From contig CAZFGR010000022.1 in NCBI GenBank assembly GCA_964518475.1, forward strand, positions 1 to 25,847: a stretch of DNA of 25,847 nt, read 5' to 3'. The stretch comes from an uncultured Nitrososphaerota archaeon. GTDB lineage: Archaea; Asgardarchaeota; Njordarchaeia; Njordarchaeales; Njordarchaeaceae. Below, piece after piece: positions 421 to 22,601 of the stretch. Each line of letters begins with the position of its first letter. The stretch's first letter is position 1. The notes beneath the pieces are model-generated. The model saw nothing but the letters and a program-made list of their open reading frames with translations, was not told the DNA's origin and made no database searches. The translations under genes were made by a program, and so were the position numbers.

Positions 421-444
421 TTATCAGCTTAATTGCTATATCAC

Positions 445-3400
445 ATGAAACCTGAGCTTAAGAGTGGTACAATCATACAGGCTCCTTTCTGGCCGGAACC
501 TGTAAAAATCGAAAAGATAGAGGATTTAGGAGAATACTTGAGAATAATTGGGGCCACAATAAACAGTAAACAATATATTGATACTATAATCCGAAAGGAA
601 GAATTAAATGGAATAAAAATTCTCACGCTTGAAGCAGATTTTTCGGCAGATCCTGAAAATGTCTTTCTAGCATTAGAGGCATATCGCTTTAAACTTGCCT
701 CGTTATTTGACCCCATTCTTGCTATGAACGTCTCAAAAATAGACCCTCTACCGCATCAAATAGAAGCCGTTTATGGATATATACTCAAATTGCCAAGAAT
801 TAGATTTCTGATTGCCGACGACCCTGGTGCAGGAAAAACCATAATGGCCGGCTTAGTTATTAAAGAATTAAAGCTTAGAGGTTTGGCAAGAAGAATACTA
901 ATAGTAGTCCCTGGGCATTTGAAGGATCAATGGAGAAGAGAACTTAAAGAAAGGTTTTCTGAGAATTTCGTAATTGTTGACAGAAGCGTAATTGAAGCAC
1001 ATTATGGTGAAAACGTTTGGGAGAAGGAAAACCAAATCATTACATCAATTGATTTTGCTAAACAGGAGGATATTCTTCCATCATTACAAAGCGTTCACTG
1101 GGATTTGGTTATAGTCGATGAAGCACATAAAATGGCAGCATATCGTTATGGTGATAAACTCGTGAAAACGGCAAGATATAAGCTTGGAGAAGTATTATCT
1201 AAAACCTCCGAACATTTACTATTTTTAACCGCAACACCACATAAAGGAGATCCGGAAAACTTTAGATTATTTCTCGATTTGCTCGAACCAGGCTTCTTTT
1301 CATCGGCAGAAATGCTTAAGGAATCCATCAAGAACCGTGATAACCCCCTCTTCATCAGAAGGCTCAAGGAAGATTTGAAAGATTTCGAAGGTAGACCGCT
1401 CTTCCTTCCACGGCACGTTAAAACAATAAAATTCAGAATTACCGACGAAGAAATGAAATTGTACAACGAATTGTCAAAGTATGTTATAACTCAATATAAT
1501 AAAGCTCTACAAAGGGATAAAAAGAGAAACATTGCCTTTGCTTTATTAATTCTGCAGAGAAGAATGGCTTCAAGCGTATACGCAGTTAAACGCTCACTTG
1601 AGAGAAGAAAGAAAAAATTAGAAGAGCTTCTGAGAGGAAAGAGAGAGAAACCTATCAAAGTGGTTTTTGACATTGAAGAAATTGACGATTACGATGAACG
1701 ACAAAGATGGGAAATTGAAGAGAGTTGGGAAACTCTAAGTGTGGCGGAGAATAAGGAAGAACTCGAAAAAGAAATAAGAACCATCGATAGACTGATAAAA
1801 ATGGCTGATGAAATAATAAAGAAAGAGAGCGAGATTAAACTCAAGGAACTCAAGAAGTTAATGACATCTAAAGAATTAAAAGATCAAAAGATCCTAATTT
1901 TTACAGAATCAAGAGATACTCTCGAGTACCTTGTTGATAAAATACGATCTTGGGGTTACTCCGTTACATACATCCATGGTGGTATGAAACTTGAAGATAG
2001 AATAAGAGCAGAACAAATCTTTAAAAATGAAGCACAAGTCATGGTTGCAACTGAAGCGGCTGGAGAGGGTATAAACCTACAATTCTGTAACATCATGATA
2101 AATTACGATATCCCATGGAATCCAAGTAGACTCGAACAAAGAATGGGTAGAATCCATAGATACGGACAGACAAAGGAGGTTTTCGTTTTTAATCTTGTCG
2201 CCGAAGATACGAGAGAGGGTAAAGTTTTAGCAAAACTGCTGGATAAACTCGAAGAAATTCGAAAAGCTTTGGGAACAGATAAAGTCTTTGATGTAATTGG
2301 TGAGATATTCTACGGAAAAAGGTTGTACCAACTTGTGCTCGAAGCCGCAGCAAACGCAAGAGACATCGATGAAATATTGAAAGAAATCGACATCAAAGTT
2401 GATGAAGAATACATAGCAAAGGTTAAGGACGCATTGGGTGAAAGTCTCGCAACGAGATTCATAGATTACACGAGAATAAGAGAAATGGCGGAAAAAGCAA
2501 AAGAGTACAGACTAATCCCAGAATACACAGAAGCATTCTTTGTAAAAGCATTCGAAAAGGCCGGAGGTAAAATCGTTAAAATCGGTAACTTTTACAGAAT
2601 AGATTCTATACCGTATGAAATTAGAAAAATAGCCGAAGAAACTTCATTTAAGAATACTTGGGGCGTTTTAGCAAGAAAATATGCAAAAATAACGTTTGAC
2701 AAAGACATAGCCATGAGACATAGTGACGCTGAATTCGTTTCATTCGGACATCCGCTATTTGAAGCGGTTATAGAGTGGGTTCTTAGGAAGTTCTTAGGGG
2801 AATGTATGAAAGGCGCCGTCTTTAAAGATCCCTCCGGCAAATACAATGGAACTATTTGGTTCTTCGAAGGAGAAGTTAAAGACGGAAAAGGTGTAATCGC
2901 TGGAAAAAGACTCTTTGCAATATATGACGACGGAAAAAATCTGACAGAAATAAATCCATCCTTAATTTGGGATCTAGCACCATTCCGTGGAAGCTTCAAG
3001 TTTGATGAGAACAGGAAAAAAGAAGCAGAAAAATATGCAATAAAAGCTCTCATGGAGTTTAAAGAAGAACTTATGAAGGAAAGAATAAGGCAAGCAAAAA
3101 TAAAAGAGAAGTACGGTGTAAGATCTCTCGAAAAATTGATTTCTGAACTGGATTCAAAACTCATGGAGTATTATGAAAGAGCCGAAAAAGGCGAGAAAAT
3201 GGATTTAGCCATCCAGATGGCCGAGAGAAGGAAAAAAGAATATGAACAAGCCCTAAAAGAACTTAGGGATGAAATCGAAAAAGAAAAACACCTAACAATT
3301 ACTATGCCTAAACTGATCGGCGTAATACGAGTTATTGCCGGAGATGAAATGATAAGTGATGAGGAAATCGAGAAAATAGGTATGGAAATTGCTATGGCAT

Positions 3401-3744
3401 ATGAAAGAATGCAGGGACGAGAACCAGAAGACGTTTCAAAGGAAAACCTTGGATATGATATACGATCAAGGGGTAAAGGAGAAATTAGATATATTGAGGT
3501 CAAAGCAAGAGCAACAACCGGAGATGTAGCTCTAACACCAAATGAATGGTTCAAAGCCAAAAGATTCAAAAACCAATACTGGCTATACATCGTTGAAAAT
3601 GCCGCAACAAACCCAACGCTCTATATCATAAATAATCCAGCCGAAAAACTTAATGTGATAGAGAAAGTCGAAACTGTTAGAATACTTGTACCTTATAACG
3701 AGTGGAAGAAGAAATCAAAGGTTGAAAAAGTCCAATTTCATTAA
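445..3744 (+). CDS. SNF2/SWI2-family helicase (DNA translocase) with C-terminal DUF3883 PD-(D/E)XK-like nuclease domain
   Basis: Q motif LPHQ, Walker A ADDPGAGKT, DEAH, motif III TATP, EAAGEGINLQ, motif VI QRMGRIHRYG, a coiled coil, then GYDIRS...YIEVK typical of DUF3883. ATG 445 is preferred over TTG 433 because of TATA spacing. Confidence 0.93.
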   Translation: MKPELKSGTIIQAPFWPEPVKIEKIEDLGEYLRIIGATINSKQYIDTIIRKEELNGIKILTLEADFSADPENVFLALEAYRFKLASLFDPILAMNVSKIDPLPHQIEAVYGYILKLPRIRFLIADDPGAGKTIMAGLVIKELKLRGLARRILIVVPGHLKDQWRRELKERFSENFVIVDRSVIEAHYGENVWEKENQIITSIDFAKQEDILPSLQSVHWDLVIVDEAHKMAAYRYGDKLVKTARYKLGEVLSKTSEHLLFLTATPHKGDPENFRLFLDLLEPGFFSSAEMLKESIKNRDNPLFIRRLKEDLKDFEGRPLFLPRHVKTIKFRITDEEMKLYNELSKYVITQYNKALQRDKKRNIAFALLILQRRMASSVYAVKRSLERRKKKLEELLRGKREKPIKVVFDIEEIDDYDERQRWEIEESWETLSVAENKEELEKEIRTIDRLIKMADEIIKKESEIKLKELKKLMTSKELKDQKILIFTESRDTLEYLVDKIRSWGYSVTYIHGGMKLEDRIRAEQIFKNEAQVMVATEAAGEGINLQFCNIMINYDIPWNPSRLEQRMGRIHRYGQTKEVFVFNLVAEDTREGKVLAKLLDKLEEIRKALGTDKVFDVIGEIFYGKRLYQLVLEAAANARDIDEILKEIDIKVDEEYIAKVKDALGESLATRFIDYTRIREMAEKAKEYRLIPEYTEAFFVKAFEKAGGKIVKIGNFYRIDSIPYEIRKIAEETSFKNTWGVLARKYAKITFDKDIAMRHSDAEFVSFGHPLFEAVIEWVLRKFLGECMKGAVFKDPSGKYNGTIWFFEGEVKDGKGVIAGKRLFAIYDDGKNLTEINPSLIWDLAPFRGSFKFDENRKKEAEKYAIKALMEFKEELMKERIRQAKIKEKYGVRSLEKLISELDSKLMEYYERAEKGEKMDLAIQMAERRKKEYEQALKELRDEIEKEKHLTITMPKLIGVIRVIAGDEMISDEEIEKIGMEIAMAYERMQGREPEDVSKENLGYDIRSRGKGEIRYIEVKARATTGDVALTPNEWFKAKRFKNQYWLYIVENAATNPTLYIINNPAEKLNVIEKVETVRILVPYNEWKKKSKVEKVQFH

Positions 3745-4053
3745 ACTAACTAATATTTTCCCTGTTTAATTTACTAAAAATCAAATTTTAGAAGGTTATA
3801 ATTGACAAAATCAAGATCTTGTTACCAAAAGCCTACTTCAAATAAGGTTATAAAATGCATCAATTTTCATCTTGAGACCGCACTTAAAGCCGAAGAAATA
3901 GTCATAATTTACCAAATAAAACTAAAGATAGTGTTATTTGCGTAATATTGTTACCTTTAAATTTGTAACGGATTAAGTTAATTAGTAACAAGCTTGAATT
4001 TCATCTAAAATGTGGAGAGGGAGTTTCGATCACTAAAATATAAAGGTGATCAA

Positions 4054-6816
4054 ATGGAAGAGTTCCCCATCAAACGCTCATTCATCGAGGAAACATTTCC
4101 AGTTAAAGAAGTAAGCGAGGAAAGCGCAAGAGAAAAGAACATAAGACATGGACACATTTCAACCCTGCACATATGGTGGGCTCGCCGCCCCTTAGCAGCC
4201 TCAAGAGCTACTGCATATGCAGCACTAATTCCAGCACCTAAAAGTATTGAAGAAGCAGAGAAGGTGAAAAATTTCATAGCTCAACTTTGCAAATGGGAAA
4301 ATTCACTTAATCCTACCTATATTGAAAAAGCAAGGGAAGATATAAGAAAAGCCTTAGGATATACACCTCGTGTGCTCGATCCTTTTGCTGGTGGGGGCTC
4401 GATTCCTCTTGAGGCATTAAGATTGGGATGTGAAGTCTATGCGGGTGAATATAATCCCGTTGCAGTTTTGATTCTTAAATGCGTTTTGGAGTATCCACAA
4501 AAGTATGGGAGAGCCACGAGAAAAAATAAACTTGGGCTAGAGGAAGAGTATAATCCTTTACTTGAAGATTTCAAAAAGTGGGGAGAGTGGGTCTTACAAG
4601 AGGCTAAAAAGGAAATTGGAAAGTTTTATCCACCAGATGATGACGGCTCTATACCAGTATGTTATTTATGGGCAAGAACTATTCCATGTCAAAATCCCTC
4701 TTGTGGTGCGGAAATTCCGTTAATAAGACAATTCTGGCTGGCTAGGAAGGACAAAAAGAAAGTAGCCTTATATTTATACGTTGAAGGTAAAGAAGTGAAA
4801 TTCAAAATTGTTGGAACGGGATATGAGCCTATGCCAGAGGGGTTTGATCCATCAAAAGGAACTGTTAAAGGTGCTAAGGTCATCTGTCCCGTGTGTGGAA
4901 TGACTATCGATGATAGAACCGTTAGAAGGTTGTTCCAACAAGGAAAAGCGGGACAAAGGATGATTGCAGTTGTATTATATCATCCCGATAAGAAGGGAAA
5001 GATCTATAGGGTTGCAAATAAGGAAGATATTAAGATCTATAAAGATGCCGAGAAATATTTAGTTAAAAAGATTGAAGAACTTAAAGAGAAGTGGGAGATT
5101 GAGCCTATACCGAATGAACCCTTACCAACCCCAGAGATGAAAGAGTTTAAAGGTAAAGGTGATTTATTCTGGAACTTTGCTCCTATTGTAATTTATGGTA
5201 TGAAAAAATGGGGGGACATATTCAATTCGAGGCAGAAACTTGCTTTAATTACATTTGTTGATAAGATTAGGGAAGTTTATTATAAAATGATCGAAGAGGG
5301 ATACAATAAAGAGTATGCAAAGGCTATTGTAACATACTTGGCCTTGAATTTCGATATGATGGCGGTATCCTGTAATACTTTAGGGAGATGGGAAGGAAGT
5401 AGAGAGTTAATTGCAGATGTTTTTTCAAGGCAAGCTATACCAATCACATGGGATTATCCAGAATTAAATCCGTTCAGTGGGAGTTCTGGTAGTTGGGATA
5501 GAGTAAAGACATATTTTGAAAAATTCATTGAACGAGAATCTAAGATTCATGCAATCGAGTGTTGTCCTTTTCAAGCATCTGCCACTGAACTCCCGTTTCC
5601 GGATAATTACTTTGATGCCATCTTTACAGACCCGCCTTACTATGATAATGTTCCATATTCGTATCTTTCAGACTTCTTTTATGTTTGGTTAAAGAGGACA
5701 ATAGGAGATTTTTATCCTGAACTTTTCTCAACTCCACTAACTCCGAAATCAAGAGAAATTATAGCAAGTTTACCACTCCTTAGGGGAATGCCAAAAGATA
5801 AAGCAGAGAGGGTAGTCAAATCATTAAAATCTCAAAAAGACTTCGAGGAAATGCTTAAAAAATCTTTTCAAGAAATTTGTAGAGTTTTAAAACCAAATGG
5901 TATAGCAATCATAGTATATGCTCATAAAACTACCTCTGGTTGGGAGACTCTCATCAATTCTCTTCTTGATTCGGGCTTAGTAATCACAGCATCATACCCC
6001 ATCCATACAGAAATGAAAGCTCGTCTTAGAGCTAAAGAATCTGCTGCATTAGCCTCCTCAATTTACATAGTATGTAGAAAGATGAAGAGACTACCAACAG
6101 GATGGTTTAATGAAGTAAAGGAGGAACTGAAAAGGTATCTCCATAAAAAGCTCGACCAACTATGGAAGGAAGGAATAAGTGGTGCAGATTTCTTCATATC
6201 TGCAATAGGTTCTGCCATTGAAGTATTTGGAAAATACGAAAAGATCATGGATTATGAAGGGAATGTTATCAGGGCAGATAAGCTTCTTGAGTATGTTAGA
6301 GAAATAGTAACAGATTATGCTGTCAAGCAAATTTTACAAGACGGTATTGCTTCAGAATTATCGCCTTTATCAAGATTTTATTTACTATATCGTTGGAGTT
6401 ACCAAACTGCTAAAGTTCATTTTGATGAGGCCCGCAAACTGGCTCAGAGTGTTGGCGTCGATTTAGAAAAAGAATGGAACAAGGGTTTCATAGTTAAGCA
6501 GAAAGAGTATATATATCTCCTTGGACCGCATGAAAGGACTCTACAGGAACTTGAAAATGCAAGAGAACTTGTAGATGTATTGCATAAAGTTCTGTTACTA
6601 TGGGAGAAAGGTAGAAGAGAGGAAATTGTTGAGACACTGCAAAAGACTGGTTGGCTTAAGGATAGTTTCTTTAGATATGCTCAGGCAATTTCGGAGTGTT
6701 TACCTAATGATAGTAAAGAAAAGAAGTTACTCGACGGATTTCTAACCGGAAGAGAAAGGATAATTAGTGAGGCAAAAACTAGGGAAGCAAAGTTGACAGA
6801 GTACATTAGAAGATGA
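4054..6816 (+). CDS. DUF1156-domain adenine-specific (N6) DNA methyltransferase with Zn ribbon (COG1743-like)
   Basis: N-terminal HISTLHIWWARRPLA (DUF1156), motif I VLDPFAGGGSIP, Zn ligands CQNPSC...CPVC and catalytic motif IV TDPPYY. SD AGGTGAT at 4044-4050 favours ATG 4054 over GTG 4012. Confidence 0.93.
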   Translation: MEEFPIKRSFIEETFPVKEVSEESAREKNIRHGHISTLHIWWARRPLAASRATAYAALIPAPKSIEEAEKVKNFIAQLCKWENSLNPTYIEKAREDIRKALGYTPRVLDPFAGGGSIPLEALRLGCEVYAGEYNPVAVLILKCVLEYPQKYGRATRKNKLGLEEEYNPLLEDFKKWGEWVLQEAKKEIGKFYPPDDDGSIPVCYLWARTIPCQNPSCGAEIPLIRQFWLARKDKKKVALYLYVEGKEVKFKIVGTGYEPMPEGFDPSKGTVKGAKVICPVCGMTIDDRTVRRLFQQGKAGQRMIAVVLYHPDKKGKIYRVANKEDIKIYKDAEKYLVKKIEELKEKWEIEPIPNEPLPTPEMKEFKGKGDLFWNFAPIVIYGMKKWGDIFNSRQKLALITFVDKIREVYYKMIEEGYNKEYAKAIVTYLALNFDMMAVSCNTLGRWEGSRELIADVFSRQAIPITWDYPELNPFSGSSGSWDRVKTYFEKFIERESKIHAIECCPFQASATELPFPDNYFDAIFTDPPYYDNVPYSYLSDFFYVWLKRTIGDFYPELFSTPLTPKSREIIASLPLLRGMPKDKAERVVKSLKSQKDFEEMLKKSFQEICRVLKPNGIAIIVYAHKTTSGWETLINSLLDSGLVITASYPIHTEMKARLRAKESAALASSIYIVCRKMKRLPTGWFNEVKEELKRYLHKKLDQLWKEGISGADFFISAIGSAIEVFGKYEKIMDYEGNVIRADKLLEYVREIVTDYAVKQILQDGIASELSPLSRFYLLYRWSYQTAKVHFDEARKLAQSVGVDLEKEWNKGFIVKQKEYIYLLGPHERTLQELENARELVDVLHKVLLLWEKGRREEIVETLQKTGWLKDSFFRYAQAISECLPNDSKEKKLLDGFLTGRERIISEAKTREAKLTEYIRR

Positions 6817-6921
6817 TTACGTACTTTAAACCTTTAATTTCCATAGACGGGCCATATAGACGTTGACTAAGCACAATTTAATTTATATATGCAATGAACA
6901 CTAGAAGTGTGGGGGTTAAAT

Positions 6922-9564
6922 ATGAAGCCCTTTCATCTCATTGCAACTCCTCACAGAGACATTCTCGAAGGCAGACTGACGATGGACATATTTGCGGCAG
7001 ATTTATGGGAGGTCTTTAAGGGGAGGGCAGTTGAGGACTATCAGGATCCTGATATCTTCTTCAGGAAAACGTACCTTACTGCTGGACTTAAGAATCTGTT
7101 AAAAGTTGCCTCTAAAAGGCTTAAAGGGGAAGGTGGAGACCCTGTTATTCAAATTCAAACACCTTTTGGTGGTGGAAAGACGCATGCTCTAATAACTCTG
7201 TATCATGCGTTTACAAATCCCGAAATAGCGAAAAAATATGTTGGTGAGGTTATTAAAGCCAATGTAGTTGTTTTAGTCGGTACCGCGATAAGTCCTAAAG
7301 AAGAGAACGGTAAAATTGTTGGTACTCTCTGGGGAGAGATTGAGAGGCAACTTGAGGGAGAGGTTAGAAAGCTTAGCAGTCCGATTTCTCCGGGTAGAGA
7401 AGTGCTAAGAGAATTATTAGAGAAGCATCAACCTCTTTTAATTCTCATAGATGAAATTCTCGAATATGTTGCAAAGGCTGCTGGAATTAAGAAAGGATAT
7501 AAAGAGCTAAAGATTGGAGATACAAATCTTGCGGCTCAAACGATTGCCTTCATGCAAGAACTAACTGAGACAGTAAAATCTCTTGATAAGACATTACTCG
7601 TTGTAACGTTGCCATCGAGTGTAGTAGAATATGCTGACGAAGAAGCAGCCCAAAAATTGCTCATGAAGCTTCAAAAAGTCGCTGGTAGAATTGAGAAAAT
7701 TTACACGCCAGTAGCAGGGGAAGAAATTTATGAGGTCATAAGAAGAAGACTTTTTTCAAATATAGACGAAATTGCCGCAAGAGAAATTGTCAATGAGTTT
7801 ATTAAATATTACGAGAGAGAAGGAATAATTGTGGATAAAACGGAGTACAGAAACAAGATGCTTCGTAGCTATCCGTTTCATCCGGAGGTTATTGATGTTC
7901 TTCATCATAGATGGGGTAGCATTCCAACTTTTCAAAGAACAAGAGGAGTTCTGAGAATACTCTCTCTTGTAGTTTACAAACTAAAGGACTCAGAAGTTCC
8001 GCTAATCCGACTCTCTGATTTCGATTTGAGCTTCAGCGAACTTGCAGAGGAGTTAGTAAAGCATATCGGCAGAGAATACGAAAGTGTTTTATCAGCAGAT
8101 ATAACTGCTAAGGATGCGAACGCAAAAAGGGTCGATAGATCTCTTGCAGATACATATCAAGGGTTAAAGCTCGGAACTAAGCTTGCTACAGCGGTATTTC
8201 TATATTCTTTCTCTGGTGGAGAGAAGGGTGTAACATTAGGTGAACTTAAACTCGCATGTGCGGATATAAACATACCTTCAAGCGTAATTACTGATGTGCT
8301 GGATAAGCTAAAGAGCACCTTGCATTACTTGTGGATAGAAAATGGAAAGTATGTTTTCAAGAGCATACCTAACTTAAATAGGATAATAGCGTCAAAGATG
8401 TCTGAGATTGATGCTGATACTATAAATTCTGAGATAAAATCCCTACTTAAGAAATATGCAGGAAGCGCTCTTCCGGTGTATATATTTCCGAAGAATTCTA
8501 AAGATGTGCCCGATACAGAGGAACTAAAACTCGTTATTTTACAATCTCAAGACTTAGAGTTTATGAAAGACATTATCGAAAATTACGGTAATAATCCGAG
8601 GGTTAATAAAAACACAATCTTTTTCCTTTGTCCATTAGAATCTGAAAGGTTAAGTTTTGAGAATTGGCTTAGAAGAAAACTTGCATGGGAAAGTATAGCC
8701 AATGATAAGTCTCTAAACCTTACTGAAAGCCAAAAGAAAGATGTCGAAAAGAACCTTAAGGAATTTAAGAGAGATGAGAGACACCAATTAAGAAGTCTAT
8801 ATAGGCTTGTTTATGTTCCGGCAAAGGAATTTAGAGAAATAGATCTAAAAACTCCAGTTTACGGAGATAAACGACCTATAAGTAAAGAAGTTTTTGAAAT
8901 TTTGAGAGCTGAAGGGGAAATTGTTGAAAAACTGTCACCACATCTAATTTTGGAGAAGTATCTTGGGAACAGAGATTACTTGGAGATAAAACAACTTTAT
9001 AAGACCTTACTGACGACCCCTGGAGAGCCAAGAATATCGAAACAGAACTTCATAAAATCAATTAAGGATGGCGTTAAGAACGGTATTTTTGGCTTTGGCA
9101 TTATGAGAGACAACACCATCGAGTGTACAAAATTTAAAGAGATTCCGGACATAAATTTTGAAGATTACGAGATAATACTCAGAAAAGAACTTTGCGAAAG
9201 AAAAGAGGAAACTAAGGTTGAGGCTAAGGGTGCTGATGTTACCATTACTGCCGAGCCAACTACTACAATTATACACGAACATGTACCTGAACAGGCAGAA
9301 ACACCCTCCTCTAAAATCACCCCTCCAATACAAGAACCTACTTTAAAGAGTATTATGCTGAAAGTTAAAATACCCAAAGGAAAGTTTTCTGATTTCTATA
9401 GAGGAGTAATAATGGCATTAGAAAGATCTTTTGAAAAAACAGACATTACAATCGTAATAGAAGCCAATAAAGGGTGTCTGAAGAAGAGCGATTATGAGAA
9501 TAAAATTAGGGAAACACTTCTTCAAATAAATGCAAGTATAATCGAGGAAAAGGTAAAAGAATAA
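6922..9564 (+). CDS. DUF499-family AAA+ ATPase (COG1483-like)
   Basis: N-terminal TPHRDI...FAADL, Walker A TPFGGGKTH, Walker B LLILIDE, YPFHP and FQRTRGVLR signatures, then a Pro/Thr-rich linker before a small C-terminal alpha/beta domain. A G-rich SD precedes ATG 6922, and a TATA-like TTTATATA lies at about 6882-6889. Confidence 0.92.
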   Translation: MKPFHLIATPHRDILEGRLTMDIFAADLWEVFKGRAVEDYQDPDIFFRKTYLTAGLKNLLKVASKRLKGEGGDPVIQIQTPFGGGKTHALITLYHAFTNPEIAKKYVGEVIKANVVVLVGTAISPKEENGKIVGTLWGEIERQLEGEVRKLSSPISPGREVLRELLEKHQPLLILIDEILEYVAKAAGIKKGYKELKIGDTNLAAQTIAFMQELTETVKSLDKTLLVVTLPSSVVEYADEEAAQKLLMKLQKVAGRIEKIYTPVAGEEIYEVIRRRLFSNIDEIAAREIVNEFIKYYEREGIIVDKTEYRNKMLRSYPFHPEVIDVLHHRWGSIPTFQRTRGVLRILSLVVYKLKDSEVPLIRLSDFDLSFSELAEELVKHIGREYESVLSADITAKDANAKRVDRSLADTYQGLKLGTKLATAVFLYSFSGGEKGVTLGELKLACADINIPSSVITDVLDKLKSTLHYLWIENGKYVFKSIPNLNRIIASKMSEIDADTINSEIKSLLKKYAGSALPVYIFPKNSKDVPDTEELKLVILQSQDLEFMKDIIENYGNNPRVNKNTIFFLCPLESERLSFENWLRRKLAWESIANDKSLNLTESQKKDVEKNLKEFKRDERHQLRSLYRLVYVPAKEFREIDLKTPVYGDKRPISKEVFEILRAEGEIVEKLSPHLILEKYLGNRDYLEIKQLYKTLLTTPGEPRISKQNFIKSIKDGVKNGIFGFGIMRDNTIECTKFKEIPDINFEDYEIILRKELCERKEETKVEAKGADVTITAEPTTTIIHEHVPEQAETPSSKITPPIQEPTLKSIMLKVKIPKGKFSDFYRGVIMALERSFEKTDITIVIEANKGCLKKSDYENKIRETLLQINASIIEEKVKE

Positions 9565-18552: not shown

Positions 18553-19227
18553 TCAAATTGCAGGCAAAATTTTGAGTCTCAGCGGGTATCTATCGTAAAT
18601 TCCTCTTTCTCCGATGTGTTCGCAGTAGTGATAGTACACGTACCATTCTGGTATGTAACCTCTCTTATATTCGAAGCCTATTGGTTTGATTTCTTTCCAG
18701 CTGTGAACTGGCCTATCGAGGGTGCTTTCTAGGAGGTACCATTTACCGTCGATGAACACTTCGATCCATGCATGTCCGTCATCGTAATACTTTCCCAGTA
18801 CTACTCTTACATGTCTTTTATTCACACCTAATGCTAGTATTAGTGATGCCAGGAGAAAGGATGTGTCTTCGCAGTCTCCCATGCGATTTTCTAGAGTTTC
18901 GCATGGGAATTGCCAGTATTCTGGGAGTCCGCGGAGCTGTTTATCGGAAACGTATCTTATTCTTGTGCTGACGAAGTTGAACGCTGCCAATATACGGCTT
19001 CTCAAATCGCGATGTGCTCTCATGATTTGCGATGCGACTTGTCTTACACAATCGTCGTATGGTCTTAGGGATGCATTCACCCTGTATTTGCGTCCCCCTC
19101 TATTGATCACTGGGCATAGTTTGAGAAGGTCATGGATAGATGCTAGAAAGCCATCTATTAATTCAATTATCAACCTGTAGCACTGCGCATCTTTTTTTGT
19201 CCGATAATTGTTCGTCTCACTGATCAA
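18553..19227 (-). CDS. Transglutaminase-like (papain-fold) cysteine protease
   Basis: YVSD...EYWQFPCETL...GDCEDTSFLLASL...GHAWIEV...WYLLEST gives a Cys-His-Glu triad. The true start is uncertain and may lie downstream of TTG 19227. Confidence 0.85.
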   Translation of the reverse strand: MISETNNYRTKKDAQCYRLIIELIDGFLASIHDLLKLCPVINRGGRKYRVNASLRPYDDCVRQVASQIMRAHRDLRSRILAAFNFVSTRIRYVSDKQLRGLPEYWQFPCETLENRMGDCEDTSFLLASLILALGVNKRHVRVVLGKYYDDGHAWIEVFIDGKWYLLESTLDRPVHSWKEIKPIGFEYKRGYIPEWYVYYHYCEHIGERGIYDRYPLRLKILPAI

Positions 19228-20815: not shown

Positions 20816-20914
20816 ATTGGAATGCCATCCCGATAGAATTAAAAATGTTGATTATATTGCCGCTTTTAGTTGATTTTTAAATAATACGATGTCACACTAT
20901 CTGGGGGGACAAAA

Positions 20915-21190
20915 ATGGAACTTGAAAATAAAATCTGCAAGCTTGTACGGGAGAACCCTCGTTACGCGGGTATACTTAAGAGGGCCATTGAAGTGGAAGA
21001 AAAGAAAGCTAATGATCGGTATTTCTTGGGATGGGAGTGGCATGATGTGAGAGCGTGGCCAGCCGAGTTGATGAAGTTGGTTAGAGAGGGTATTGTTGAT
21101 ATAACTTACAAGAGCAGGAGATATACCCATTACAAATTAGCGGATCGTGAGGCTGTAAAAAGAGCTCTCAGGAGGTGCGCTTTAGAGTGA
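20915..21190 (+). CDS. Small winged-helix-like protein
   Basis: GWEWHDV...ELMKLVREGIVDITYKSRRYTHYKL is a recognition helix plus wing. TATA-like TTTTTAAATA at about 20874-20883 and a GGGGGA SD. Confidence 0.75.
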   Translation: MELENKICKLVRENPRYAGILKRAIEVEEKKANDRYFLGWEWHDVRAWPAELMKLVREGIVDITYKSRRYTHYKLADREAVKRALRRCALE

Positions 21191-21849
21191 TAAAGATTCT
21201 GAAGATCGCACCAACTGAGAACCTTAAGGAATTCTGGAATCCCATTTTTGAAGGAATTATGATAATAAACGCTGAAGAAGTAAGAGCAGCGCGTCCTTCT
21301 GGAATCCCGGGTTATCCTTCCCTTAGCTATCCTTTTACGATATTAAATTTAGAGGTGGAGGGTCTAGTGGGGCTTAGGGTTCTCGATCGGAAACTTTACG
21401 TTGGAATATTAAAGGGGCACATGGAACAATTTCCAGTTCAAGTAACAAATGCTCAGCAACCATTGCAAGTTACGTTTAGGATAATAGTTAGCAGGCAGAG
21501 TTATTTGGATTCTGTTACGCTATTAAAGATTGGCCAGAACATCGAAGAAAGCGATGGAGTGCGACTAATACTTGATGATCTTATTTTAAGGGCGTATTAT
21601 TTTAAATCGCAAACTCCTCCGAATGAGGGATGTCTTGTAAAGAGGACAAATTTAGAGGTTCAGATAAGGTCAATCGACTGGTTGAGTCCATTGAGCCTTA
21701 TAGAAGGCTATCGAGTAGTCCTGATTTCTAATGATACTTATCAGAGGCTCAAAGACCTTGCTAGGCGCATAGGTCTTTCTTCTCATCTAACCATAGATGA
21801 TATCTTAGCGAAAATCTTTGAGAAATTTAAAGAGGGAGAAGGCTCGTGA
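21187..21849 (+). CDS. Hypothetical protein with a beta-rich N-terminal domain and a C-terminal ribbon-helix-helix-like (antitoxin-like) segment
   Basis: GTGA overlap with the upstream stop and SD GGAGGTG at 21171-21177. The C-terminus RVVLISNDTYQRLKDLARRIG...TIDDILAKIF fits the strand-helix-helix pattern of archaeal RHH proteins. Confidence 0.7.
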   Translation: MIKILKIAPTENLKEFWNPIFEGIMIINAEEVRAARPSGIPGYPSLSYPFTILNLEVEGLVGLRVLDRKLYVGILKGHMEQFPVQVTNAQQPLQVTFRIIVSRQSYLDSVTLLKIGQNIEESDGVRLILDDLILRAYYFKSQTPPNEGCLVKRTNLEVQIRSIDWLSPLSLIEGYRVVLISNDTYQRLKDLARRIGLSSHLTIDDILAKIFEKFKEGEGS

Positions 21850-22601
21850 GCAGATGTGTAGATCGGTGCAGATATTATAAATTTGTAATAATAGAACAGG
21901 AGGATAACGTTGCACTATGGTACCATTACTGTTCGAAATATGACAGGTGGTTTCTTAGTATCTCCAAAATGGAAGATTTTGCTAGGAGAGAATGCTCTGA
22001 ACAAGTGATTAACGTAGATTATCAGAGCCTTGTAAGCGAAGTTTTTGGGCTTATTAAGAAGTGTAATCAGCAATTTCAGTTACTGTGTAAAAAATGCAAC
22101 ATCACAGAGGGAGTGCTCTTAAGGGAGGACTTTGAGATAGCTAGCGCTCTTACAAAGCTTCCTGCTGGTGAAGATGATTTCTGGAATCAAACTGCGAGTT
22201 TAGCTAAATTATTTGATATATCTGCCAATAGTATGAGGGAATTTGTGCGTCAAGAAGCCGCTAAAAGGCATATAAATCTCGAGAATCTTACTAAAAGAAT
22301 ATTTAGCGGCGACTCCTTTGAAAATCTAGGCACAATAAAACTCCTTAAAATTTTAGCTACAATAACTAATGATTCTCGGTATGAACATGTTTTCAAAATA
22401 TGGAGTGCCATACGACGCCTAAGACATCTTAGAGCCCATATCCTTGAGGGAAAATCCCTAAAGGAAGTAGCGGAGGCCTTAGAAACGTTTGGCGAGAACT
22501 ATCCACCGAGAAATTATCTTAATTTATGGACTAAAGTAATTCAGGAACTTAAGGCATCACTTGAAATGATGTCCGAACTTCTTAAGGAATTACAAAAATA
22601 A
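21846..22601 (+). CDS. HEPN-domain putative RNase with N-terminal Cys-rich (Zn-binding) segment
   Basis: GTGA overlap with the upstream gene, N-terminal CxxxC...C...C, and the R-x4-H motif RHLRAH (22422-22439) in a helical C-terminal domain. Confidence 0.7.
   Translation: MSRCVDRCRYYKFVIIEQEDNVALWYHYCSKYDRWFLSISKMEDFARRECSEQVINVDYQSLVSEVFGLIKKCNQQFQLLCKKCNITEGVLLREDFEIASALTKLPAGEDDFWNQTASLAKLFDISANSMREFVRQEAAKRHINLENLTKRIFSGDSFENLGTIKLLKILATITNDSRYEHVFKIWSAIRRLRHLRAHILEGKSLKEVAEALETFGENYPPRNYLNLWTKVIQELKASLEMMSELLKELQK

Follow-up and report, generated by a model that had tools for sequence, protein, structure and literature searches.

A conserved, translationally coupled three-gene cassette with a putative HEPN effector and a leader gene found in front of many unrelated archaeal defence genes

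We describe three adjacent, translationally coupled genes, here called P1, P2 and P3, in a 25,847-nt contig (CAZFGR010000022.1 of assembly GCA_964518475.1; "the window" below means this whole stretch) from an uncultured archaeon placed by GTDB in the Njordarchaeaceae of the Asgardarchaeota. The three genes recur together in the same order elsewhere, P3 carries a highly conserved HEPN-type motif, and P1 belongs to a family that precedes many unrelated defence genes in archaea. We lean, with modest confidence, towards reading the trio as a toxin or abortive-infection pair regulated by P1 and expressed as one transcription unit within a defence island. Its parts would then be new families arranged in a familiar logic of regulator, neutraliser and HEPN effector. 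The P1 family itself, which may lead defence cassettes in archaea generally, could be of wider interest than the trio.

The gene structure is compact. A preliminary description of this DNA had proposed a single promoter and two successive GTGA overlaps of start and stop, and both proposals hold. The P1/P2 and P2/P3 junctions each read GTGA, with the start codon overlapping the preceding stop, and the open reading frames (ORFs) lie where they had been placed (Table 1); the TATA box before P1 is kept in both other trio loci described below. Shine-Dalgarno-like sequences, AGGAGGTG (21170-21177) and GAGGGAGAAGG (21831-21841), lie 5-10 nt 5' of the two internal starts. A second in-frame GTG, at 21175, is available to P2; we set the start at 21187 because relatives keep ATGA or GTGA overlaps at these junctions (at -4 in locus L009, ATGA in locus L076). 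In the public automatic gene call (P0001), P3 starts only at Met42. We prefer the GTG at 21846 as start, because the 41 residues before Met42 hold cysteines that are conserved in homologs.

Scanning metagenomes with the P1 family as seed located P1-P2-P3 in the same order on two contigs of one hydrothermal-sediment metagenome. Amino-acid identities to the trio for P1, P2 and P3 are 80, 50 and 57% in the first (L009) and 80, 49 and 52% in the second (L010). The 4-nt overlaps are retained in both, so that the three genes not only co-occur but are still translationally coupled, as the neighbourhood check suggested in the preliminary description had sought. Between trio copies, synonymous divergence (dS) is saturated while nonsynonymous divergence (dN) is 0.12-0.39, which argues that purifying selection has held the arrangement over a long divergence; since the copies in L009 and L010 stay conserved, P1, P2 and P3 are more than chance ORFs. 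A decayed trio (L076:193-593) keeps the 3' half of P1 and, across an ATGA overlap, the initial 72 codons of P2, with no P3; the cassette has thus evidently been gained and lost. P2 homologs occur only in L009, L010 and this remnant, the 50%-identical ones being found by tblastn on the fetched loci after a word-index search had missed them. Distribution is rare and patchy: among 400 Asgard genomes, P1 occurs in 3, P3-like proteins in 6 and P2 in none but its own. PADLOC-DB v2 gave no family for P1, P2 or P3 at E≤1, in keeping with the earlier statement that no named system has this layout, and PDB sequence searches with each protein by itself and with profiles A2, A3 and A4 returned nothing.

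P1 is found well beyond the trio. Its family comprises at least 44 clusters at the 90% identity level (alignment A2), of about 90 aa each and at 54-99% identity, and its conservation is unusually high, with invariant residues that include G39, W40, W42, K66, S67, T71 and Y73. Members occur in Thermoprotei, Bathyarchaeia, Nitrososphaeria, Baldrarchaeia and the Njord source genome. Of 87 P1 loci examined, some of them redundant, 86 were tallied once L008 was set aside; this Chloroflexi RadA/Sms-like protein matches at 35% over 66 aa only and is probably a chance or very remote match. In 44 of the 86 loci a co-directional gene starts within 60 nt of P1, very often at -4, and four more are fusions.

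The genes behind P1 fall into at least 27 unrelated cargo clusters. As identified with Pfam, these include restriction-modification (R-M) components (type I HsdM/HsdS, N4/N6 methylase and MmeI/Eco57I-like type IIG enzymes) as well as HerA with NurA and an N6-methylase, PLD with SNF2, GmrSD with HNH, and a CAP12/Pycsar-type TIR protein. Further cargo comprises a radical SAM enzyme and a minimal MCM-like AAA+ ATPase. We found no account of the P1 family in such a general leading role in the searchable literature, a limited search that leaves room for prior work.

Some P1-headed cargo matches no Pfam family. One locus (L019:662-4716) holds four genes (213, 209, 273 and 665 aa, with overlaps of -16, -14 and -4) and is a candidate for an undescribed archaeal defence system. 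Similar cases are found in L033 and L036 (126 aa) and in L006 and L074 (87, 212 and 116 aa). Separately, in a metagenome-assembled genome of Thermoproteota, a P1 homolog lies directly 3' of a nucleotidyltransferase/HepT-like (MNT-HEPN) pair (L007:4389-5288), a further link between P1 and HEPN proteins.

A winged helix-turn-helix (wHTH) fold is plausible for P1. The P1 profile aligned with TrmB wHTH at an hhalign P of 0.0048, with LMKLVREGIV-DITYKSRRYTHYKL falling on the recognition helix and wing, compared with P=0.0076 between two bona fide winged-helix families (TrmB and Cdc6_C) and P=0.03-0.06 for negative controls; against Cdc6_C, P1 itself gave P=0.1. There was no match to WYL, Xre or other known regulator or HTH families in Pfam, NCBIfam or PADLOC at E≤1, and the ESM Atlas leads, DsrD and MarR_2, are sub-threshold and were not relied on. 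The trio had earlier been credited with two putative DNA-binding modules. That in P1 receives weak profile support, while the ribbon-helix-helix (RHH) in P2 receives none beyond secondary structure.

The promoters of P1 genes resemble one another and share TTTAAATAG together with ACACAC-type tracts. Those of the three trios (window, L009 and L010) have in common TTTAAATA[GA]TACG...CACAC[TC], and CACTATCTG is common to the CA tract of the window and to L034, where P1 precedes a type IIG R-M enzyme. In the 60 nt 5' of 53 non-redundant P1 genes, set against 1560 random windows that are largely coding DNA and with related loci that are not independent, TAAATA occurs in 26 of 53 versus 34 of 1560 (p=8e-26), AAATAG in 19 versus 34, ACACAC in 12 versus 14 (p=3e-12) and GACACA in 13 versus 16. 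Perfect purine-pyrimidine alternation over at least 12 nt is present in 10 of the 53 and in ~1% of random windows, again mostly coding DNA (p=7e-8). Perfect alternating runs of 15-23 nt lie between TATA box and start codon, for example in L041 (23 nt), L051, L088, L003 and L011, and may reflect an operator, DNA flexibility or Z-prone DNA. AC/CA steps 3' of the TATA box are enriched 2.4-fold relative to the remaining TTTAAATA sites of these loci. To judge from these shared motifs, the element is a candidate operator or conserved leader. A Z-DNA-binding (Z-alpha-like) P1, prompted by the alternating tracts and the DsrD lead, was considered and found unsupported: the Atlas score is at chance level, and P1 appears to lack the Z-alpha wing signature.

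P1 is also linked to MCM-like ATPases. It is fused to or overlaps MCM-like AAA+ genes in 10 loci, and in four of these, two of them distinct, it forms the N-terminus of a minimal MCM-like AAA+ ATPase of ~345 aa, which may be a replication initiator or a regulator (Table 1). In L061 the fusion sits amid arrays of small ORFs, with a Pox_A32/HerA-type packaging ATPase 2 kb away, and this proximity suggests a virus or mobile element. The resemblance drawn in the preliminary description, to a domain N-terminal to AAA+/MCM-like ATPases of archaeal mobile elements, is thus borne out, with some fusions in surroundings like those of viruses or mobile genetic elements (MGEs). The source genome itself has a second P1 paralog (G000 contig C76, L102:2392-2679), on a small, element-like contig of 4.2 kb. 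A 79-aa ORF follows it, it faces a large wHTH protein of 368 aa, and its promoter holds TTTAAATAG and CACACTCACACACTCACAC.

From this relationship comes the mechanism first suggested for the trio, in which free P1 would mimic the DNA-binding domain of an invader's MCM-like ATPase, sense or titrate the invader protein and so free the HEPN toxin from P2. The kinship of P1 with the head of an MGE-type AAA+ protein, the packaging ATPase near one fusion and the element-like contig of the second paralog all speak for it. Yet the same P1 leads at least 27 cargo clusters, mostly R-M or other defence, among them type I, II and IIG R-M, HerA-NurA, TIR and GmrSD cassettes. For many of these cargoes, such as R-M enzymes, no need of a trigger of this kind is known, and the decoy does not account for the placement of P1 before R-M genes. 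IMG/VR, INPHARED and PLSDB yielded no P1 homolog, and nothing physically links P1 to P2 or P3. We therefore regard a decoy or sensor as very unlikely; a general regulator fits better, because P1 is shared by so many cargo clusters.

P3 is the putative effector. A profile search of 1.8 billion representatives returned 53 relatives, all of them unnamed metagenomic proteins, and the family is unannotated. R193 is present in 53 of 53 sequences and H198 in 52 of 53, at a spacing of 4 and within the consensus W..I..LRN.P.H; also conserved are N74, W186, I189, L192, F215, P220 and W228. Thus the RxxxxH motif noted earlier is intact in the window and is preserved in distant homologs. The published HEPN signature is Rx4-6H with N, D or H right after the R (Anantharaman et al. 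2013, PMC3710099). P3 agrees with it, including the polar residue: the position after R is N in 36 of 53 sequences and otherwise Q, D, H or R, with H194 in the window. HEPN domains have a second conserved acidic residue, often in Ex3[KR]; for this, E94, conserved in 37 of 53, is a candidate, and E137-x3-R141 is invariant only in the three close homologs and sits in a clade-specific insert. At the N-terminus, P0002, P0003, P0049, P0050, P0055 and P0059 retain the Cx2-3C...C...C pattern, and several family members carry Pfam zinc ribbons there.

Weak profile and fold matches place the P3 motif in register with that of HepT. Against 28 PF01934 (HepT) sequences from related genomes, hhalign gave P=0.0024 with the R/H pair on the catalytic RNxxxH of HepT. 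Two true HEPN families, HepT and DUF4145, matched each other less well (P=0.007), and P3 against DUF4145 gave P=0.13. The AlphaFold2 model of P3 (mean predicted local distance difference test, pLDDT, 86.9) has an ill-defined, low-confidence beta head and a confident nine-helix body, with pLDDT above 90 over most of it, and its VIA search lists HepT 7ae2_A (Z 5.5, 127 of 141 residues), 5yep_B (Z 4.8) and the HEPN-containing N-terminus of Roquin, 4txa (Z 6.3).

P3-like domains are also found fused to nucleotide-hydrolysing heads. A 537-aa protein (L091:1174-2787, minus strand) joins an ABC/SMC-type ATPase head (AAA_23, AAA_15, SMC_N) to a C-terminal P3-like domain with LRHDFSH. In a complete Asgard genome (G034), a 632-aa protein (L095:6273-8171) combines a Ras-family small GTPase with a C-terminal P3-like helical domain containing RxxxxxH, possibly a GTPase-gated RNase in an Asgard archaeon. 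A third Asgard form stands alone, in another tightly packed three-gene set. On the strength of the motif, the HepT profile and fold matches and the ATPase and GTPase fusions, P3 is best read as a HEPN-type regulated RNase, and we think it probably is one. Of the "Zn-HEPN RNase" proposed at the outset, the RxxxxH and the Cys ligands prove to be conserved; a HEPN family match is absent, and the profile and fold matches are weak though in register.

P2 is proposed as the partner or neutraliser of P3. Residues 1-160 form a predicted beta-sandwich that matches 3but (AF_0446) in Foldseek at E=4.9e-5, and VIA matches range from Z 6.6 to 7.9, including LEA14 1xo8 (Z 7.9) and the TMEM106B luminal domain 8b7d (Z 7.8). 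In the model, the tail has a low-confidence extended stretch at residues 173-181 and then two helices; it looks like an unpaired RHH monomer, which is compatible with that fold and not diagnostic of it. Pfam gave no RHH match in P2. The "beta-domain-RHH fusion" originally described therefore stands for its beta domain and falls short for its RHH, which scores no better than negative controls. A sub-threshold ESM Atlas lead for P2, DUF6084, was not relied on.

Several observations weigh against the trio as a P1-regulated toxin or abortive-infection pair. About a quarter of P1 loci have no linked downstream gene, and some P1 loci lie in MGE-like settings, so P1 is not exclusively a leader of defence operons. 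The CA tract of the window is itself short, and the promoter enrichments carry the background and dependence stated with them. None of P1, P2 and P3 has a meaningful match in Pfam, NCBIfam, PADLOC or PHROGs, where no curated family threshold was reached. For P2, only one of five AlphaFold2 models is confident (pLDDT 74.5, versus 55-60 for the other four), and its hhalign P of 0.03 against RHH_1 lies within the range of the controls (0.013-0.085). For P3, Foldseek with the model found no match, and the exhaustive VIA search is topped by generic helical bundles, with adenylosuccinate lyase at Z 9.0; such bundles match at least as well as the HEPN structures do.

The results for P3 also bear on whether it is a nuclease at all: the R/H pair might instead bind a ligand or nucleic acid in a helical domain that is not HEPN, and the trio might serve a function outside conflict. 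Such a role would accommodate the fold searches just given, the low hhalign probabilities and the lack of a match to Pfam HEPN families in any of the 53 members. However, the motif fits the HEPN definition down to the polar residue after R, the in-register HepT match surpasses the one obtained when two true HEPN families are compared, fusions to ABC ATPases and GTPases are typical of regulated defence effectors, and the trio lies in a defence island. A non-nuclease P3 is unlikely, and we retain the HEPN-type RNase as the better account.

Table 1. Coordinates and properties of the trio, its promoter and the P1-ATPase fusions
Feature	Position	Strand	Description
P1	20915..21190	+	91 aa, ATG start; small-protein family with GWEW...LMKLVREGIV...YKSRRYTHY; probable winged-helix DNA binder, putative leader/regulator gene
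P2	21187..21849	+	220 aa, GTG start on the P1 TGA; orphan, beta-sandwich (1-160) and C-terminal segment (172-220)
P3	21846..22601	+	251 aa, GTG start on the P2 TGA; Cys4 head and all-helical domain
P3 N-terminal Cys4 module	21846..21998	+	C4, C8, C29, C50; probable zinc-binding beta domain
P3 all-helical domain, residues 55-251	22008..22601	+	bears HEPN-type motif; proposed RNase effector
P3 Rx4H motif, R193-H194-L195-R196-A197-H198	22422..22439	+	codons of the HEPN-type motif
Consensus archaeal TATA box TTTAAATA	20876..20883	+	39 nt 5' of the P1 ATG; sole evident trio promoter
CA-rich tract GTCACACTATCTG	20891..20903	+	between TATA box and start codon; candidate operator or conserved leader element
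P1-ATPase fusion	L061:3583-4614
P1-ATPase fusion	L077:4926-5972
P1-ATPase fusion	G314:C6:639792-640037
P1-ATPase fusion	G029:C52:10483-10704

The genomic setting of the trio is consistent with a role in defence. A complete Hma (helicase-methylase-ATPase) system, 11 kb 5' of the trio, occupies positions 433-9564 of the window, with PADLOC matches to HmaA (5e-205; SNF2 and NOV_C), HmaB (4e-127; DUF1156 methylase) and HmaC (3e-138; DUF499 ATPase), and its presence marks the window as a defence island. No annotation was found for the direct flanking genes of the trio. Between Hma and the trio, at 18553-19227 on the minus strand, lies a gene for a protein with a transglutaminase-like cysteine protease domain (Transglut_core, 3e-11).

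This setting is relevant to a further possibility, that P2 and P3 form an addiction (toxin-antitoxin, TA) module which stabilises a mobile element, with P1 as the transcription- or replication-control protein of that element. The patchy, horizontal-looking spread of P1 and P3-like proteins among Asgard genomes, the decayed copy in L076, the MGE-like contexts of some P1 genes and the TA-like coupling would all suit such a module. No integrase or replication gene adjoins the trio in the window, however; the island contains Hma, and the P1 cargo that could be identified consists mostly of genuine defence genes. We consider an addiction module unlikely as an account of the trio, and TA and abortive-infection roles are in any case not mutually exclusive.

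If the trio is a P1-regulated toxin or abortive-infection pair, its parts could work together as follows. We infer that P1 binds DNA and regulates its own synthesis, that P3 is a toxic RNase and that P2 neutralises it. P1 would bind its own promoter, at TTTAAATAG and the CA-rich tract at the transcription start, and would set the level or timing of expression of whichever cargo follows, by analogy with C proteins and CapW/BrxR-type regulators. Because P1 is extremely conserved across cargoes, it is likely to act on a constant target, such as promoter DNA or the basal transcription machinery, and not through contacts specific to each cargo. P2, which would be made in a fixed ratio to P3 through the start/stop overlap, could hold P3 inactive until a cue of infection and possibly sense infection through its beta-sandwich. 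Once released, P3 would act as a metal-independent RNase that arrests the cell, either as a toxin or as an abortive-infection effector. The P1 family would in this way supply the promoter-proximal gene of many archaeal defence cassettes that move horizontally.

A broader proposal, which we put forward only tentatively, is that P1 defines an undescribed archaeal "defence-cassette leader": a portable unit of conserved strong promoter, CA-rich or alternating purine-pyrimidine element and ~90-aa winged-helix protein, behind which interchangeable immune cargo is swapped among Thermoproteota, Bathyarchaeia, Nitrososphaeria and Asgard archaea. Under this proposal, P1 would be derived from, or shared with, the DNA-binding head of a small MCM-like AAA+ protein of mobile elements; P2-P3 would be a new abortive-infection system that pairs a new Zn-HEPN family with a new beta-sandwich partner; and other unannotated P1 cargoes, such as that of L019:662-4716, would likewise represent new systems, which P1 as bait could bring to light.

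Outside CRISPR and R-M, the immune systems of archaea are poorly mapped. A recent survey that covered 7,747 archaeal genomes urges discovery strategies adapted to archaea (PMC12988326). If P1 is indeed a shared regulator of diverse archaeal defence operons, it would be the first archaeal counterpart of the bacterial immune-operon regulators and would offer a handle on how toxic effectors are restrained in archaea. As several P1 cargoes lack any annotation, it could also serve as an easy bait with which to find new systems through guilt by association. P3 would add a new zinc-headed branch of HEPN RNases, with PrrC-like ATPase fusions and with Ras-GTPase fusions in Asgard archaea.

Among known systems, the trio most invites comparison with HepT/HEPN-MNT and other HEPN toxin or abortive-infection modules (PMC3710099). 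Like these, it has an Rx4H motif with a polar residue after R in an all-helical domain, a partner gene immediately 5' that is translationally coupled, a defence-island setting, and weak matches to PF01934, 7ae2_A and 5yep_B. Unlike HepT/HEPN-MNT, its partner is a predicted beta-sandwich protein rather than a nucleotidyltransferase, P3 has no Pfam HEPN match and instead carries an N-terminal Cys4 module and a larger helical domain (~190 aa), and a third, leader gene is present. By domain layout alone, the distant P3 relative in L091 resembles the R-M-linked anticodon nucleases PrrC and RloC, in which an ABC ATPase is joined to a C-terminal HEPN domain. In PrrC/RloC, HEPN effectors act alongside R-M systems; the P3 of the window differs in having no ATPase. 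With type II TA pairs, P2 and P3 share adjacency and translational coupling, through GTGA/ATGA overlaps that are conserved. The fold modelled for P2 residues 1-160 is that of LEA_2/WHy-type beta-sandwich proteins (AF_0446 3but, LEA14 1xo8, TMEM106B), which have no sequence similarity to P2 and no known role in toxin control.

The closest parallels for P1 are the C proteins of R-M systems and the CapW/BrxR, CapH-CapP and CapK-CapS regulators, the last three groups being encoded 5' of diverse bacterial immune operons (PMC9122589, PMC13373217). Like them, P1 is small, is encoded first and co-directionally, often with an overlap, and precedes unrelated defence systems; and its promoters, like those of their operons, contain a conserved element. 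In contrast to C proteins and CapW/BrxR, the P1 family is distinct, unannotated and archaeal, and is also found fused to an MCM-like AAA+ ATPase. P1 may thus work as the C protein and CapW/BrxR regulators do, while not being a member of their families.

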